This document shows, piece after piece, positions 22,001 to 62,632 of a stretch of 64,000 nucleotides of DNA. Position numbers and translations under genes: made by a program. The notes under the pieces were generated by a model. It was given only the letters and a program-made list of their open reading frames with translations, was not told where the DNA came from and made no database searches. Positions within the stretch are counted from its first letter, which is position 1. Each line of letters starts with the position of its first letter. Origin of the DNA: Octopus vulgaris (taxonomy: Eukaryota); NCBI GenBank assembly GCA_951406725.2, contig OX597817.1:61504001-61568000 (forward strand), in the 5' to 3' direction.

Positions 22001-22610
22001 GGCGGCGAGCTGGCAGAAACGTTAGCACGCCGGGCGAAATGCGTAGCCGTATTTCGTCTGCCGTTACGTTCTGAGTTCAAATTCCGCCGAGGTCGACTTT
22101 GCCTTTCATCCTTTTGGGATCAATAAATTAAGTACCAGTGAAGCACTGGGGTCGATGTAATCGACTTAATCCGTTTGTCAGTCCTTGTTTGTCCTCTCTG
22201 TGTTTAGCCCCTTGTGGGTAGTAAAGAAATAGGTATTTCGTCTGTCTTCACGTTCTGAGTTCAAATTCCGCCGAGGTCGACTTTGCCTTTCATCCTTTCG
22301 GGATCAATAAATTAAGTACCAGTGAAGCACTGGGGTCGATGTAATCGACTTAATCCGTTTGTCAGTCCTTGTTTGTCTCCTCTGTGTTTAGCCCCTTGTG
22401 GGTAGTAAAGAAATAGGCATTTCGTCTGCCGCTACGTTCTGAGTTCAAATTCCGCCGAGGTCGACTTTGCCTTTCATCCTTTCGGAGTCGATTAAATAAG
22501 TACCAGTTACGCACTGGGGTCGATATAATCGACTTAATCCTTTTGTCCCCTCTGTCTGTATCCCCTTGTGGGCAGTAAAGAAATAGGTACTTCGCACTGG
22601 GGTCGATGTA
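22001..22610 (+). mobile_element. SINE family B (Meta-domain-like body), three units in tandem
   Basis: Head 'ggcggcgagctggcagaaacgttagc', body 'gcctttcatcctttcggggtcgataaa..agtacc', each unit ending 'ccccttgtgggYagtaaagaaata'. Confidence 0.9.
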
Positions 22611-31842: not shown

Positions 31843-32660
31843 ATGTTGACTTTGAAGTCACTGCTGTGGAAGCTGGAACGTTTGAGGAGTATTTTTTTTC
31901 CAAATGGGACGCGATGGGGCCATGTCAGTGTATGCAGACGACGTTACCATAATAGTAACGGATGCTACTATTATGAAGTGGAGGTGGTTGACACGTCTCT
32001 AAAAGAATGCGAGGGGAAGACAGGATCAAAACTCAGCCAGGGCAAGTCAGTGGGCTTATAGCTCGGTACCTGGAGAGCAAGTCCACACCGTCGGAAGACA
32101 CTATGAGGCACTGGACCGATAAACCATTTAAATTGTTCGGGGTTTCGTTCGGTCCAACCCTATGTCAGTAGGAGCTGGAACGTGTTAGCGAACATCGTAG
32201 CTGTATAAACGCATATGGCCTGTGGTCACCCTGGGAGCAGGTTCACCGGTTCAATGAACGCAGGCCTCTAACTTTGGTTGTGAGAGCCATCGGTGAAACC
32301 TGAATTTCCGATACGTGCATATTAGCACCCATTTTTGGCAACTTCAAGATCTTCGCATCTCTTACTCCGACCGAAATATGGGGGATGCGGGGCTATTACA
32401 GAAGATCTGAGCCTCAAGATACGGTCGATCTTCCTGGACCTAGAAGGTAAGTTGGTGGTCATGGACATGAACAGTAGCAAAGGTGATGCCTTTAGACTAG
32501 TCACCGTGTATTCCCCGACTGGGGAGACCAGGTTTGTTCAGGTGTCTGGAGGTTTTCCTAAAGAAGCTCCATTCTTTAGTGCTACTGGGTGACTGAAACG
32601 ACATCTTGGATGCATGTATGGATTTTGTGGGACTAGCTATAAAAGCCTGGCAAAGTTGCT
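31843..32660 (+). mobile_element. Tx1/L1-like ORF2 remnants (RT then APE endonuclease, rearranged)
   Basis: VSVYADDVTI near 31925, then LDLEGKLVVMDMNSSKGDAFRLVTVYSP...LVLLGD*N endonuclease motifs. Confidence 0.7.
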
Positions 32661-34270: not shown

Positions 34271-34301
<31 letters not shown>

Positions 34302-34440
34302 TGGGTCATCCCATAAATAATGCGGTTTTTTCAATCGCTTCGGAGGGGAACGGGACAAACTACTTGCATCAACTTGCTATGAAAGCAGGTAGTCATTTTA
34401 CTATGTACTTATTCTTAGCGCAAGTTTATTTTGCGAGGAT

Positions 34441-35812
34441 TGTTTTGTGCTGAGGAGTGTGTTGTGCTGAGGAGTGTGTTGTACTGAGGAGTGTGTTGTG
34501 CTGAGGAGTATGTTGTGATGAAGAGTGTGTTGTGCTGAGGAGTGTGTTGTGTTGAGGAGTGTGTTGTGCTGAGGAGTGTGTTGTGTTGAGGAGTGTGTTG
34601 TGTTGAGGAGTGTGTTGTGCTGAGGAGTGTGTTGTGTTGAGGAGTGTGTTGTGCTGAGGAGTGTGTTGTGCTGAGGAGTGTGTTGTGTTGAGGAGTGTGT
34701 TGTGCTGAGGAGTGTGTTGTGCTGAGGAGTGTGTTGTGCTGAGGAGTGTGTTGTGCTGAGGAGTGTGTTGTGCTGAGGAGTGTGTTGTGTTGAGGAGTGT
34801 GTTGTGCTGAGGAGTGTGTTGTGTTGAGGAATGTGTTGTATTGAGGAGTGTGTTGTGCTGAGGAGTGTGTTGTGCTGAGGAGTGTGTTGTGCTGAGGAGT
34901 GTGTTGTGTTGAGGAGTGTGTTGTGCTGAGGAGTGTGTTGTGCTGAGGAGTGTGTTGTGTTGAGGAGTGTGTTGTGCTGAGGAGTGTGTTGTGTTGAGGA
35001 GTGTGTTGTGCTGAGGAGTGTGTTGTGTTGAGGAGTGTGTTGTGCTGAGGAGTGTGTTGTGCTGAGGAGTGTGTTGTGCTGAGGAGTGTGTTGTGCTGAG
35101 GAGTGTGTTGTGTTGAGGAGTGTGTTGTGTTGAGGAGTGTGTTGTGTTGAGGAGTGTGTTGTGCTGAGGAGTGTGTTGTGCTGAGGAGTGTGTTGTGCTG
35201 AGGAGTGCGTTGTGCTGAGGAGTGTGTTGTGCTGAGGAGTGTGTTGTGTTGAGGAATGTGTTGTGTTGAGGAGTGTGTTGTGTTGAGGAGTGTGTTGTGC
35301 TGAGGAGTGTGTTGTGTTGAGGAGTGTGTTGTGCTGAGGAGTGTGTTGTGTTGAGGAGTGTGTTGTGTTGAGGAGTGTGTTGTGTTGAGGAGTGTGTTGT
35401 GCTGAGGAGTGTGTTGTGCTGAGGAGTGTGTTGTGTTGAGGAGTGTGTTGTGCTGAGGAGTGTGTTTTGCTGAGGAGTGTGTTGTGTTGAGGAGTGTGTT
35501 GTGCTGAGGAGTGTGTTGTGCTGAGCAGTGTGTTGTGTTGAGGAGTGTGTTGTGTTGAGGAGTGTGTTGTGCTGAAGAGTGTGTTGTGTTGAGGAGTGTG
35601 TTGTGTTGAGGACTGTGTTGTGCTGAAGAGTGTGTTGTGTTGAGGAGTGTGTTGTGCTGAGGAGTGTGTTGTGTTGAGGAGTGTGTTGTGTTGAGGAGTG
35701 TGTTGTGCTGAGGAGTGTATTGTGTTGAGGAGTGTGTTGTGTTGAGGAGTGTGTTGTGCTGAGGAGTGTGTTGTGTTGAGGAGTGTGTTGTGTTGAGGAG
35801 TGTGTTGTGTTG
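34441..35812 (+). repeat. 17-bp minisatellite (GAGGAGTGTGTTGTGYT) x ~80
   Basis: Homogeneous tandem array varying mainly at one C/T position. The minus-strand ORFs repeat every 17 aa (3 units). Confidence 0.97.
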
Positions 35813-35880
35813 TGTTGCTTTGCAGCAGTTTTTTGTGTGTAGCGCCATCTTTCTTCGTTGGCCTGTGACGGAGGAGCGAA

Positions 35881-37298
35881 ATGAATAGTTATGCGGCAGC
35901 AACGGGAAGTCGGGGTTCTGTCGTCCCGGATACGCTGAAACAGAATGAACAGCATTGTAATTTGGACCTGCTCCAGAAATATCAATATATGGTAAAGAGG
36001 GAGGGGCCGAACACAAAGTTGACCCCACCAGAGGATGACAAGGTGAAGAGGGAAAGCAGAGTGATAATTTATAGAACTTTTTCAAAATAAAGTAAGAGGC
36101 TGGAGAATGCAATGCAGGAGGAGGTGAACGAATGTCTGGAAAAATTGAAGGAAAGTTTTATACCAGAGGGAAAAAATACGTTTCAGCGGCAGTTACATTT
36201 GTCTCAGAAGAGGAGACAAAAAGACATTCCACTAAGGTGTTACATGGAGAAAAATGGACACTCCTGCCCACTTACCTGGGTAAACGAGTTACCAGGATTA
36301 GGGTAGGGAGGATCCCACCTAGAATCGATCCAGATAGGATAATAGCGGCAATTTTCACCGCAAGAGAGAAAGGAGACAACGAGGAAGTGAAAGTAATAAT
36401 GATAAACCGGACCCAACAATCAAATTAGTGGAGGTACGGGGTAGAGATGATTTTTATGGTGAACCAAAAAGAGTACGAAGGTATACCAGAAACATTGGAG
36501 CTGCCCAATGAGGACAAACTAGATGTAATGTTAGAGGGGAGGCTTCTGAAGTATCACGAGTGTGGAGAGAAGGGACATATTAGAAGGTGTCCACAAAAAA
36601 ACGATGGAAACCTCAGAAATAGAAACACAAGAAGGCGTAATGGAAGTGGAGAGGAGGACCCAGGAAGTGGAACGGAACAGAGAGGTCATGGAGACCGAAA
36701 CAAGGAAGAGAGAGAGAGGAGGAGGAGTTCACCCCCTAAAACGGAGCAACAACAGAAGAAACATAAAGCACAAGAGGAAGTGGACCAACCAACAACGACT
36801 AGTAGAAGCAGTACGCCATTGGGATCACCGAAGAAAAATGCCACAAGCAGAACAGCAACATCAAGCAAACATACGAACTTAGAATCACACAAACATACAG
36901 ACTCACAGACACATAAGCACACAGACATACTGACTCACGGAAATAGAGACAGACACATGATAATACAGAGTTACAGAAACGTAAAAGCGCAGACACACAG
37001 GCACAACACGCAGACACACAAGACGTACACAGAAACGAAATTTGTTTTATTGACACACCAGACGACCCAAAAGCTGGAGATGAAAATAACGAAAATGAAA
37101 GGGATTGTGAGGGTGAATCTTTCTGAGGCATATGATAAGGATATGAGATGTATTCTAATGGAGAAAGGAAAATATAGAACTCTGAAAGAAGCTTTTCCTT
37201 CAGATGTAAATCCACTGGGGCCCGAGGTGAGTATTGAATCCAGTGATCCAGTTGTGAATTATGAAGACATTAAAAGTGACATAAAATGGTTAAGTTGA
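35881..37298 (+). pseudogene. Tx1/L1-like ORF1 (Gag-like, zinc knuckle), disrupted
   Basis: Starts MNSYAAAT. Contains LPTYLGKRVTRIRVGRIPP and IPETLEL...LEGRLLKYHECGEKGHIRRCP (decayed CCHC). Stops at 36088 and 36426 and at least one frameshift near 36165. Confidence 0.8.
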
Positions 37299-38619
37299 GA
37301 TTATTTTTAAAGAACTGTTAAAGACTCTTTGTTTGAAATAATTGAAATCATGTAATCATCCCGGAGTGGAGCCGGGGTAACCGTTTTACCTTCATTGTAA
37401 AATTTCATTTTATTCATTTTTCATGTGCTAATTGTCCCCGCATGTATATTTGTCCCCTCTATGTTGGCCCCTTGTGGGCAATAAAAAAAAATCAACTATT
37501 CTTAGTGCAAGTTTTGAAGAGTACAGTTCGATTTTAACGGTTATTTTCTTCAAAGCTATAATGGAAGTGACAAAGGAGCATATTAGGCATATTTTGCTTT
37601 ATGAGTTCAATAAGGGCAACGATGCAAATGAAAGTGCGAGGAATATTAATGCAGTATATGGGGATCGGACAATAAGCATAAGCCAGTGTCAACGGTGGTT
37701 CTAGAAATTCCGAGCCGGAAACTACAGCCTAGAAGACAAGCTTCGTCCTGGAAGATCTGTAGAGCAGGATGAGGACGTCCTGTGAACCCTGATAGCACAA
37801 AATCTCATTGTAACTGTTGGGAAACTAGCAGAGAAGCTTGATCAGTCAATCATTCATCGACACCTGCGGGGCATCAGAAGAAAAGCCAGCAAATTGGGTC
37901 AATGGGTTCCTCACAAACTTTCTTTGTCTAATCGTGTGCAGAGTGTGAATGTGTGCTCTTCTTTGTCTCATGAATGAACCTTTTTTGGACCGAATAGTGA
38001 CTGGTGATGAGAAATAGAATGTCAAGCGCCGAAGACAGTAGATAGAGAAAGGAGAAACACCGGCACCACAGGCTAAAGAAGGCCTTCACCAATGCAAGGT
38101 GTTGTTATCTGTTTGGTGAGATATGAAAGGTTTTGTCCACTTTGAATTTTGAAACCCAAACCAAACGGTAACAAAGGAGATATAATCTTTTCTACTCTAG
38201 GCACAAGCCCCGAAATTTTGGGGGAGGGGCCAGTCGATTAGAATGACCCCAGTACGCGACTGGTACTTAATTTATCGACCCCGAAAGGATGAAAGGCAAA
38301 GTCGACCTCGGTCACATACAGCGAGGATGACATTCCAAAGGCTGGAGCAGTTTGAAAGGGAAACGATGCCACCCACCATATTCGCCAGACATTTCCCCAT
38401 CTGATTATCATTTATTCCGCAGTCTTCAAAACCATTTAGACGGATTAAAAAATATGAATTCTGTAGACGAGGTCAGAACAGTACTAGAGGAGTATATTTC
38501 GTCGTGAATTTTGGAAGAGGAGCCTTGCAAGTCTACCAGATAGATGGAAATAAAAGAAGTATTTTTAAAAAAAACCGTATTACATATATGTATATATATA
38601 TATAAGAGTACATACGCCG

Positions 38620-38689: not shown

Positions 38690-38986
38690 ATACACAATGG
38701 GAAGAACGCAAAACATCCAAGTAGACGATACAAAAAATACGGACGGGTCATTCAAAGCCGCTAATCTTCAGTCAAGAACCGGATCATCCTCGCAATTTCG
38801 GCTGATTAATCTTGAGATTGCTCCAATCTGGCCCAGCCCCTGGAGCAATCTCAAGATTAATCAGCCGAAATTGCGAGGATGATACGGTTCTTGACTGAAG
38901 ATTAAAGGCTTCGAATGACCCGTCCGTATTTTTTGTATCGTCTACTTGGATGTTTTGTGTTCTTGTCCCATTTTGTATTTTATATA
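38683..38986. repeat. Near-perfect palindrome, ~143-bp arms, 15-bp spacer
   Basis: 38683-38825 is the reverse complement of 38841-38986. Both outer ends run into TA repeats. Confidence 0.95.
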
Positions 38987-41838: not shown

Positions 41839-42397
41839 GTAGTTTATATCTATATTTGCATTTATTTATATTCACTTATACATACTGTACTTATTGTATC
41901 TTATTACTCATTGATGTACATTGTTTTGTTCTATATTATGTTTGACCTTAATGTTCATAAGTAGTGGTTTAATAAATTATGTGATTGGGTATTATCTGGT
42001 AGTTGATTATTGATTAAGATGTATTTCTCCATTTCCTTATTTTGTATTATATATAAATATATATATAGTTCACAGTGAACTGTCAGCCGAAAAAAGCAGA
42101 AAGCAAAAGAAGTTGACCAACGTTTCAAGTGAAGTCTTTATCAAAGTAATGTAAGAAAAATAGTTGCCAGAAAAAAGCAACATACATTTCAAATAAGTCA
42201 GCGTCGAATCAACGACGTCAAATCAGCAGCGGCAAAATGTTTAAGCATGAATGGCTAAGTAGAACAGATGATATTGCGTGTAGGACGAACCAGGCTGTCA
42301 ACGGAGTCTCTTTCAAAAATCATAGTATCACCCTTCTTGACATAGAAAGCTTAGATATTTTCCTCTTTTTCGTGACTACGACGAAAGAGATTGTATA

Positions 42398-42795
42398 ATC
42401 TTTTCTACTCTAGGCACAAGGCCCGAAATCTTTGGGAGGGGTCCAGTCGATTATATCGACCCCAGTTCGCAACTGGTACTTAATTTATTGATCCCGAAAG
42501 GATGAAAGACAAAGTCGACCTCAGTGGAATTTGAACTCAGAACGTAAAGACAGACGAAATACCTATTTCTTTACTGCCTACAAGGAGTTAAACACAGAAA
42601 GGACAAACAAGGACAGACAAGTGGATCAAGTCGATTATATCGACTCCAGTGCGTAACTGGTACTTATTTAATCGACTCCGAAAGGATGAAAGGCAAAGTC
42701 GACCTCGGCGGAATTTGAACTCAGAACGTAACGGCAGACGAAATACGGCTACGCATTTCGCCCGGCGTGCTAACAATTCTGCTAAGCTCGCCGCC
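42398..42795 (-). mobile_element. SINE family B dimer
   Basis: Unit 1 ends '...ggcagtaaagaaata'. Headless unit 2 ends 'ggccttgtgcctagagtagaaaaga'. A monomer lies at 44005-44230(-). Confidence 0.9.
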
Positions 42796-59157: not shown

Positions 59158-59410
59158 ACGATTGATTTCTTTATTGCCCACAGGAGGTTAAACATAGAGG
59201 GAACATACACAATATGGGGACAAAAAAAATTAAAAAACAAATGATAGGATGAAAAATGAAAGCGATGTCAGCCGTGCCATCGAGCAACATCGCTTACTTG
59301 TCTTTCTTTCAATCGTACTCTAACATATCTACCCCGTACTATTCCTTTAGTTCTTTGTAATTTATTACTGGAGGCAGCCTGGTGTGATCGAGTTCAATAC
59401 CTGGCTCAAC
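59158..59410 (-). mobile_element. 3' fragment of a non-LTR element with the same tail as the ORF1-only element
   Basis: Minus strand 'ttgtcccc...gttccctctatgtttaacctcctgtgggcaataaagaaatcaatc' matches 37432-37496. Confidence 0.65.
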
Positions 59411-60096: not shown

Positions 60097-60406
60097 CACA
60101 ACGGAGTCAGACATCTTAGAGTTCATGTATAGTTGATATATAGTTTGAAGTAAGTTCATTCATGCTATATGTTCAAAGTGTTCGATGCAGTGGCCCACGG
60201 TGGCGATACGTATTCAATACAAAAAACAGATCAAAGTGGTGGAAAGCAGTCAATACAGAAGATTGATGTTTCCGAAAGAGCGAGGAATTCATTTTTACCT
60301 TAAGCAATTGTGATGACCCATGGTGGGTGTTCGCTGGGTGGTTCTAGTGAGTCTTGTGAATTGCTCGGTTTTATAATGCCTGTTAGGTGGTCAGTCCAGC
60401 GTAGCG

Positions 60407-60740
60407 TGACGTCATCAACGTTTTGACCAATCGTTTCGTTAGGTGGCTTTAGTCAAGCAGATCGGGACGTCATCATCATTTTGACCAATCGCTGTATTAT
60501 AACTGCCTCTTGTCTGTTTCCTGTTTTGACCAGTCGCTTCGTTAGTCAAGCAGAACGGGACGTCATCCAGATTCTGCCCAATCATGACTTATAGCTACAT
60601 TAGATCTGTCCCCTGTCTGTACTTGTTAGGTGACTAGTCAAGCAGAAAAGGACGTCATCAATATTCTGACTAATGACTGTCCCCTGTTTGTATCCTGTCC
60701 ATTCTAGCAGAACTAGACGTCATCAACTTGTTGACCAATC
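60407..60740. promoter_or_regulatory. Array of five CRE/ATF + CCAAT composite sites
   Basis: GACGTCATC(A/C) at 60408, 60466, 60559, 60651 and 60716, each followed after exactly 9 nt by CCAAT (one copy CTAAT). Confidence 0.6.
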
Positions 60741-60909
60741 AGAATCGGGTATGACCCTTAGCTGTATCGTATGTATCAGGGTCAGATTTGCACGAAAGAA
60801 TTTTTTTCCCTTTTTTACTAAGGCATATTTCCGTCAGTGCGAGTGTCTGTTTAAGGTAGCGGCCGTGGTGGAATTTTGCTTCTCCTTTTCGGAGGGCTTA
60901 TCTTTTGTT

Positions 60910-62062
60910 TTAGTATTCCTGGCCCAGGGTGTTTAAACTTGGTCTAAATTTTTTTATGAAATATAGTTCTTTATTTTGGCGTTGTGTGAAGGTTGCGTTG
61001 TCACTGAATTTATAGAGCGGGTTAGTTGTAAATTTCGGATTTACATTTCCAGCACATCTACCTATGTGTCCGCTGACCGGTATTTTGCGGTAATCAGGGT
61101 TTCTAATTTGTGATTTATGCACCGCCATCCTGTTACGTAAGCTATTTTTTGTATGGCCTATATACTGCCTATTGCAGCCTGCGCATGTTATGACGTAAAT
61201 TAAGTTTTCTGATGCGCAGGTGAAGTTTGTTCTAATGGTGAACTGGTGGCCTTGTTCCAGTATAAATTCTGATCCTTCTTTCAAGATGACACAGATTCCG
61301 CAGTTGGGCCTTCCACATTTTCTAACTGCTGGTTTTGTGGTTGATGTTGAGTGCAGTGTAGCTTGGGTTAAAATCCTTTTCAAGGATTTTGGTTGCCGTT
61401 TACTTTTAATGATGGTGTGTGTTTCGAGGATCCGGTTCATCTTTGGGTCTCCCTTTAGTAGGGCTGTGCTTTGTAGTATGGTGTTGAAGGCCTCATTGTT
61501 GAGTGGGTTGTGTGTAGAGATGTAGGGAAGGGTTTTTAATTGTTCTTTCTTTTTTGGTTTTGTTTGTCTCAGGTCTTCTATACTTAATTTAAGTACCCGT
61601 TGGATTGCACTGTCTATTAGGGGCTGTGGATAGTTTCTATTTGTGAGTGTGGTTCTAAGTTCCTGGAGACGTGTGTGTCGGGTGTTTGTGTCTGATATTA
61701 TGGTGCAAATCCTTCTAGCTAAACAAAAAGGGACATTCATTCTAGTGTGTCGTGGGTGGCATGAATCAAAGGGTAGGTACTGTTTAGAGTCTGTCGGTTT
61801 ATAGTAGATATCTGTCTCTATTTTGTTGCCGGTTTTCTTAATGAGGATGTCTAAAAATGGTAATTCTTTTTCGTTGTGGTCCATCGTGAATTGTATATTG
61901 TCATTTATTCCATTTAATAGTATTTTAAATTCCTCAAGTTTCTCTATACCTTTGTCCCAGATGATGAAACAGTCATCGAGGTATCTTTTCCAGTTGTTAT
62001 GGATATAGGTGGCGAAGGTGTTTCCATATTTCTCGAGTGTTATCCGGTATAGTATTTTCTCT

Positions 62063-62067
<5 letters not shown>
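60910..62067 (-). CDS. PLE reverse transcriptase C-terminal half + Cys linker + GIY-YIG endonuclease (partial, uninterrupted)
   Basis: WKRYLDDCF, LPFLD, YYKPT, SCHP, CGRPNCGIC and NLIYVITCAGCNRQYIGHT. The N-terminal IYIY run in the ORF track is microsatellite. Confidence 0.93.
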
Positions 62068-62122
<55 letters not shown>

Positions 62123-62632
62123 TGTATGAACATTTAATGTAGTTTTAGAGTCAAGTTTTGGCTACTATTTCCAGTGTGAAAGAAGAGCAGTTTCTGTCGT
62201 CGTTATCTTGATATTTCTGCACAAGTTAGGGGGCCCCCAAGGATCCGTTTTGTCGCTTATTTATTATAAAAAAAACTATATCATAGCATAAAAAATAGAT
62301 GCATTTTGTAGATAATTCTTTTTTATTGGCTTAGAGCGGATACTGACCTTGATAAAATAAATTATTACATACTTATTACAGAAACATGGTTATTACGACC
62401 TTCAAAAACTTTTTTAGGAAGAACTGTTTAAAAAAAAACATATACGAAATATAAAGGTATACATGAATACACAACCACCCACTAATGTATGTATGTATGT
62501 ATGTATGTATGTATGTATGTATGTATGTATGTATGTATGTATGTATGTATGTATGTATGTATGTGACCGCGTGTGTACCATTGGCGATTTTTTTCCTCCG
62601 TCTTCCCTTCTCTGGATCTTTCCTTTTCCTTT

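Follow-up and report, generated by a model that had tools for sequence, protein, structure and literature searches.

Among long interspersed nuclear elements (LINEs), the closest described counterparts of the element reported here are those that keep a gene for the first open reading frame protein (ORF1p). HAL1 is a non-autonomous LINE derivative that encodes only ORF1p and has arisen several times (PMC5753468, PMC5786205), and HeT-A of Drosophila (Jockey clade) and Ag-Sponge of Anopheles (CR1 clade) are described as ORF1-present bipartite non-autonomous LINEs (PMC5786205). The proteins of such elements have been proposed to multimerise with those of the partner and to help transposition (Kojima 2018, PMC5786205), and the accessible text of the same paper lists ORF1-only LINEs from three lineages only, mammals, Drosophila and Anopheles, with no mollusc case. 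Here we analysed 64,000 nucleotides of Octopus vulgaris DNA (assembly GCA_951406725.2, contig OX597817.1, positions 61,504,001 to 61,568,000 of the forward strand; hereafter the window, numbered from its first letter), in which an insert proper of 3,069 bp (34428-37496) lies between two 18-bp repeats and carries, in this order, an array with a period of 17 bp, a leader (71 nt), a single gene (472 codons) and a 3' region (198 nt). We read it, with fairly good confidence, as a dead member of a multi-copy octopod family of elements that have ORF1 only, end in a tail shared with a short interspersed nuclear element (SINE), and likely moved as non-autonomous LINEs by borrowing the reverse transcriptase (RT) of a partner. 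The features are as follows.

34300-34409, plus strand: 5' part of a mariner, the host element split by the insertion (from loose ends of mariner contigs)
34410-34427, plus strand: left target-site duplication (TSD), 18 bp
34428-35809, plus strand: 5' end and 17-bp array, about 81 copies of two alternating unit variants (from repeat period and unit comparison)
35810-35880, plus strand: leader, or 5' untranslated region (UTR), 71 nt, where other copies align in all four runs
35881-37298, plus strand: decayed ORF1-like gene, about 472 codons (from colinearity with an O. bimaculoides protein, a homolog model with fold search, and a C-terminal profile match, E 1e-22)
about 36552-36590 and about 37030-37290, plus strand, within that gene: CCHC knuckle and C-terminal domain
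37299-37448, plus strand: family-specific 3' UTR, bridged from the ORF by three non-self contigs
37449-37496, plus strand: 3' tail common to a SINE, with AATAAA and a short A run (83-84% identity to four SINE ends)
37497-37514, plus strand: right TSD (from comparison with 34410-34427)
37515-38575, plus strand: 3' part of the mariner, with a decayed transposase and a SINE near 38180-38315 (from the Pfam match given below, very high contig depth and SINE matches)
59160-59410, minus strand: divergent 5'-truncated remnant, with the last codons of the C-terminal domain, a short UTR and the same tail (from profile and tail matches)

The stretch is partly present in 20 runs from 11 studies under six organism labels, two of the runs holding at least half of its words. 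Contigs of four public runs, carrying the organism labels A, A, B and C (three labels), were aligned on 35815-38170, and the results on single contigs refer to the 32 pieces (58,881 further) and 24 loose-end rows (2,623 further) that were listed. Every bin of the element was covered in all four runs, at a summed depth whose median was 6-12 times, and whose minimum was 2.8-5.9 times, the median of the eight listed contigs per run; this ratio, computed from the 17 of 20 body bins that were left once the leader bin and two others rich in CA had been omitted, does not measure copy number. Along most of the body, 2-13 distinct contigs, 85-92% alike, were seen per variant site, with up to 13 variant-bearing contigs at the UTR site 37370 and 5-18 contigs per run carrying a variant at 37448, just before the tail. 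More specifically, three of the 32 listed pieces are non-self contigs, 85-90% alike, that cross the stop codon with at least 42 letters on each side: records 7, 15 and 32, covering 37149-37422 (26 differences), 37256-37482 (26) and 37062-37441 (57). They come from three runs, of which two carry the species label in which the window sequence is best represented; at least two of the pieces represent different copies, and the piece covering 37256-37482 reaches into the tail. Summed depth did not fall past the stop (268 to 255, 904 to 991, 113 to 106 and 785 to 1036 in the four runs). A multi-copy octopod family with a repeated ORF1-stop-to-UTR junction is thus supported, as expected from a prediction made earlier from the sequence alone (the original prediction), which had called for other copies with the same junction between the ORF1 stop and the 3' region. 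A one-off chimera or deletion unique to this locus, named beforehand as fatal to that prediction, would suit the single near-complete copy present in the window; being largely refuted by the non-self contigs that bridge the junction in three runs, it is now hardly credible. At a substitution rate of 0.0036 per million years (PMC13282606), a pairwise difference of 10-15% suggests an age of very roughly 15-20 million years. No fused ORF1 and ORF2 model was found among 5,340 long candidates, which counts as weak evidence, and the 155 stored proteins contained no RT or endonuclease (EN) motif. The listed runs that contain the stretch include no RNA run and are silent on expression.

The 3' end of the insert links it to a SINE. 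The interval 37449-37492 aligns with the 3' termini of the window's SINE copies (83-84% identity, E 1e-7 to 6e-6; five copies aligned), and contig depth jumps about hundredfold at 37449, where SINE-derived loose ends appear. Sharing of these last ~45 nt with an abundant SINE is new here and was overlooked at first reading. The A-rich tail of the original prediction stands only as a short A run, AAT and nine A followed by five more bases; it is the ~45 nt preceding this run that are informative. A 3' end that two elements have in common is interpreted as the recognition site for the RT of a partner (PMC3747384, PMC4824008), and, because the SINE shares it, this tail looks like an RT-recognition tail. 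The tail pattern had no match in viral contigs and none in metagenome contigs. The SINE of the window is, we assume, probably of the tRNA-Deu/Nin type. Two composite SINE arrangements were also seen in the window: a head-to-tail trimer of SINE body and tail with a 184-bp period at 22049-22590, and a similar dimer on the minus strand at 42394-42780 that joins two different tail types.

A further match to the tail, the sixth, falls on the minus strand at 59166-59223 (E 6e-6, with 78% identity across 59 nt), in sequence that is not a SINE. A C-terminal-domain profile, built from five outside proteins, had its best non-self match in the six-frame translated window about 130-190 nt upstream of this tail (E 0.024), and a match of this strength, correctly oriented and close to the upstream side of a tail, would arise by chance in about 3 of 10,000 cases, as a rough product of E-value and target size. 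The remnant probably has the same layout of an ORF1 end plus tail, and it counts as evidence of moderate strength for a second, much older ORF1-only lineage with that tail. No TSD was found for it. The remnant bears on the alternative that the copies are deletion derivatives of a living two-ORF LINE, passively copied on a few occasions, with ORF1 conserved only in the autonomous parent and of no benefit to the ORF1-only copies. Bipartite LINEs do arise by internal deletion (PMC5786205), 80 L1-Tx1 consensus families are reported from O. vulgaris (PMC13282606), copy number at a likeness of at least 80% seems modest, and record 32 could be a parent; against this, several copies 10-15% apart keep the junction, and to judge from the remnant the layout recurs in a lineage so distant that similarity at the DNA level is lost. 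We therefore consider passive copying unlikely.

The gene runs from the ATG at 35881 to the TGA at 37296-37298 (1,418 nt) and is dead in the window copy: it is interrupted by stop codons (36088, 36426) and by a frameshift close to 36155, and in the zinc knuckle the first Cys is lost and the last spacing is one short. These breaks are specific to this copy, as contig depth at 36427 and 36553 is mostly without the stop and the knuckle damage, and other copies carry seven more bases at 36154 in contigs of the four runs. Its translation, with X at the stops, is colinear from start to stop with the 404-aa O. bimaculoides protein A0A0L8HJ83 (51% and 37% identity), whose own model is intact. When A0A0L8HJ83 was searched against the representatives of clusters formed at 50% identity, 251 relatives were found, of which 150 were listed; many are fragments and most are short. 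Of 21 that were looked up, 14 were named, and all 14 were octopod (O. bimaculoides, O. vulgaris, O. sinensis, Argonauta). In the O. bimaculoides models P0079 and P0095, ORF1 pieces are annotated inside LDL-receptor-A and WD40 gene models, where they are likely mis-joined or exonised element fragments.

The predicted domain order is an RNA recognition motif (RRM), an RRM-like domain, a CCHC knuckle, a low-complexity linker and a conserved C-terminal domain. AlphaFold2 on the family alignment gave a predicted local distance difference test score of about 80-95 over residues 21-230, and the model comprises two alpha/beta domains predicted with confidence (about 60-142 and 142-226), then the knuckle region and, beyond a linker that lacks order, a C-terminal domain of small size. 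The best Foldseek match to the homolog model was a tandem of RRMs (IMP3 RRM12, E 9e-5), and with VIA-align the two domains separately matched RRM or ferredoxin-like folds at Z 6-8 (best 8.1; root-mean-square deviation 2.2, 73 aligned), middling scores that point to nothing better than the common RRM/ferredoxin arrangement. A zf-CCHC match was found in 20 of 103 aligned family members, and no Transposase_22-type family appeared among 25 of the 29 Pfam families over these 103 members. The C-terminal domain of about 90 residues is kept in about ten stored relatives; it gave no named family match and no usable Atlas feature match, only low-scoring ferredoxin-like folds. Among non-LTR elements, the combination of RRM and CCHC marks the type I ORF1p, which occurs in L1s of plants as well as in animal elements consistent with Tx1 (PMC5203782), and the octopod protein is accordingly predicted to be an RNA-binding, type I ORF1p-like protein with two RRM-type domains and a CCHC knuckle, so that the ORF1 reading is sound while the clade is left unfixed. 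An ORF1 with a zinc knuckle, as originally proposed, is thus upheld by RRM folds and CCHC relatives, but in this copy the frame is not open and the knuckle is damaged.

The Atlas neighbours of the protein include unnamed CCHC clusters, ZCCHC3-like clusters, DUF4283 and a PRE_C2HC cluster. The ZCCHC3-like ones, together with the intact 404-aa O. bimaculoides model and the tail matching a SINE end, would fit amplified retrocopies of a host gene, a domesticated ORF1 of ZCCHC3-like type whose mRNA would, through a SINE fragment that chanced to lie at its end, be readily copied by an RT. We judge this very unlikely, as the 251 clusters below 50% identity, mostly short fragments and some in unrelated gene models, are as for a mobile element, and the tail stretch common to the element and the 59-kb remnant is about 15 nt longer than the one they have in common with the SINE.

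Returning to an ORF1-only element that borrows a partner's RT, the family probably began as an internal deletion of an autonomous LINE. RNA polymerase II would transcribe a copy from its 5' end, and the transcript would encode its own ORF1p, which would coat the RNA. The ORF2 protein (ORF2p) of an autonomous LINE would then recognise the last ~45-60 nt, nick the target and copy the RNA by target-primed reverse transcription. The partner clade is most likely L1/Tx1, because of the long TSD, the AATAAA end and the type I ORF1; in O. vulgaris, 13 of the L1-Tx1 consensus families were recently active (PMC13282606). The original prediction of a self-supplied RNA-binding protein with a borrowed Tx1-like RT holds as to the octopod family, the ORF1p-like protein (from fold prediction) and the SINE-shared tail, but Tx1 is not established: an RRM/CCHC type I ORF1 is present, but such ORF1s are not exclusive to Tx1 (PMC5203782), the Atlas neighbours include PRE_C2HC, and an autonomous element bearing the tail was found neither in the window nor in viral and metagenome contigs. 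More tentatively, and with rather low confidence, the octopod C-terminal-domain proteins may be an old ORF1-only radiation whose two-ORF parent is gone, with less than 40% protein identity and one ~45-60-nt tail in common with the SINE. They would then form a guild of protein-coding elements that parasitise a single RT, possibly from a LINE clade other than that of the ORF1 donor, with the C-terminal domain adapting the protein to a foreign ORF2p.

Several observations weigh against the proposed element and its mobilisation. No partner LINE with the tail was found, so that mobilisation in trans is a proposed step. The alignment of record 32 ends at 37441, with 271 unaligned letters on one of its sides; if they lie 3', this copy would run from the UTR into something else, and ORF2-bearing relatives may exist beyond the listed pieces and loose ends. 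Contigs are short, and none of those listed spans a whole second element or shows its TSD. For the remnant, the protein match covers only 22 residues at its E of 0.024, and, with 27 of 674 control stretches scoring as high, its DNA shows no significant resemblance on the upstream side of the tail. No significant fold of the tail was obtained in any of the five copies (z 0.65 to -1.1). The T-rich nick motif of mammalian L1 is absent at the target site of the insert.

The insertion event itself is well defined. The repeats at 34410-34427 and 37497-37514 are identical at 17 of 18 positions, with one base different, and the sequence occurs nowhere else in the window on either strand within four mismatches. 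The flank 3' of the insert encodes the helix-turn-helix of Mos1 (PF17906, E 1e-18), and in all four runs 98-152 mariner contigs per run extend upstream of 37497 and match the left flank of the window just before 34410. As these contigs join both flanks, an empty site exists, and the 18 bp are duplicated mariner sequence, a true TSD; an insertion of about 3.07 kb inside a mariner with an 18-bp TSD had been proposed and is borne out by the repeats and the empty-site contigs. No sign of a fixed target site was seen among the listed copies and loose ends: the sequence of record 15 does not continue into the mariner site, and the surroundings of the remnant are different. Separately, one contig in each of three runs joins 37489 to 37631, fusing 23 tail letters to another mariner position, so that one more insertion with this tail is seen, elsewhere in a mariner.

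The tandem array (34435-35809, period 17, 80.9 copies) consists of units that differ by about 1% (13 of 1,264 bases in 79 units, outside one C/T site). As the units are nearly identical, the array likely grew after insertion, which would make the 3-kb length specific to this copy. A 9-nt match in the leader (35843-35851), spotted after the fact, is presumably a YY1-type site and might act as an internal promoter. The three forward frames of the insert contained no EN or RT motif, and no EN/RT Pfam match was obtained; Rfam likewise had no match inside the insert, only microsatellite and palindrome noise outside it. The predicted order of array, short leader, single gene of about 470 codons and UTR of about 190 bp agrees with what was found, the 3' region measuring 198 nt, and the motif and Pfam searches equally support the claim that the insert bears no trace of EN or RT.

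Elsewhere in the window, 31900-32600 (plus strand) holds what we take to be degraded Tx1/L1-like scraps in reversed order, with an RT YADD near 31930 upstream of an EN-like stretch at 32400-32590; considered as a partner, the scraps at 31.9-32.6 kb are not nameable and are followed by no shared tail. At 60200-62133 (minus strand) there is a frame of 407 codons which we assume to be a Penelope-like element, with an RT C-terminus and a GIY-YIG-like end; its 5' side is cut by a TA microsatellite, and imperfect repeats of about 60 nt follow. A palindrome at 38702-38964, with 124-nt arms that are 96% complementary and a 15-nt spacer, is probably a miniature inverted-repeat transposable element or a fold-back element.

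No ORF1-only element of octopus is described in the accessible text of the literature searched, including PMC4758252, PMC5753468, PMC8967140, PMC9115989, PMC3531059 and PMC10294476; the family may already stand in Repbase, Dfam or the O. vulgaris consensus library of PMC13282606. An ORF1-only LINE in a mollusc, with an ORF1 of another type, would add one more independent origin to those listed, and an own RNA-coating protein combined with a borrowed RT would then be a recurrent strategy. The shared tail is a direct handle on the RT driving a very abundant octopus SINE, and the LINE, the ORF1-only element and the SINE form a natural three-way comparison for the contribution of ORF1p in trans. 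Moreover, many octopus gene models named as uncharacterised CCHC-type probably come from this element family and not from host genes.

The strategy proposed for the element is that of HAL1, HeT-A and Ag-Sponge and has precedents in mammals and insects, and four of the six features of an ORF1-present bipartite LINE were found (ORF1p-like protein, no EN/RT, repeated junction, and TSD with tail). Like HAL1, it is probably an ORF1p-only non-autonomous LINE derivative. It is not HAL1 proper, with CCHC and two RRM-type domains predicted in place of a Transposase_22-type protein: the source of HAL1 is mammalian L1, which has a type II ORF1p with a coiled coil, one RRM and a C-terminal domain (PMC5203782) and an RT that recognises poly(A) and not a specific tail (PMC3747384), whereas the octopod element has a predicted type I protein and a sequence-specific, SINE-shared tail. 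HeT-A is telomere-specific, whereas the octopod element is dispersed with a long TSD, and both HeT-A and Ag-Sponge differ from it in parent clade and host phylum. With the Tx1/L1-clade LINEs of octopus the insert shares a type I-like ORF1 and a long TSD, differing by the lack of ORF2. Xenopus Tx1L also inserts into another transposon, as the octopod insert does. The octopus SINE has the same last ~45 nt (83-84% identical) and presumably uses the same RT, but it is non-coding and about 240 nt long, whereas the insert carries a gene of about 470 codons and has no Rfam match inside, so that it is not itself a SINE.

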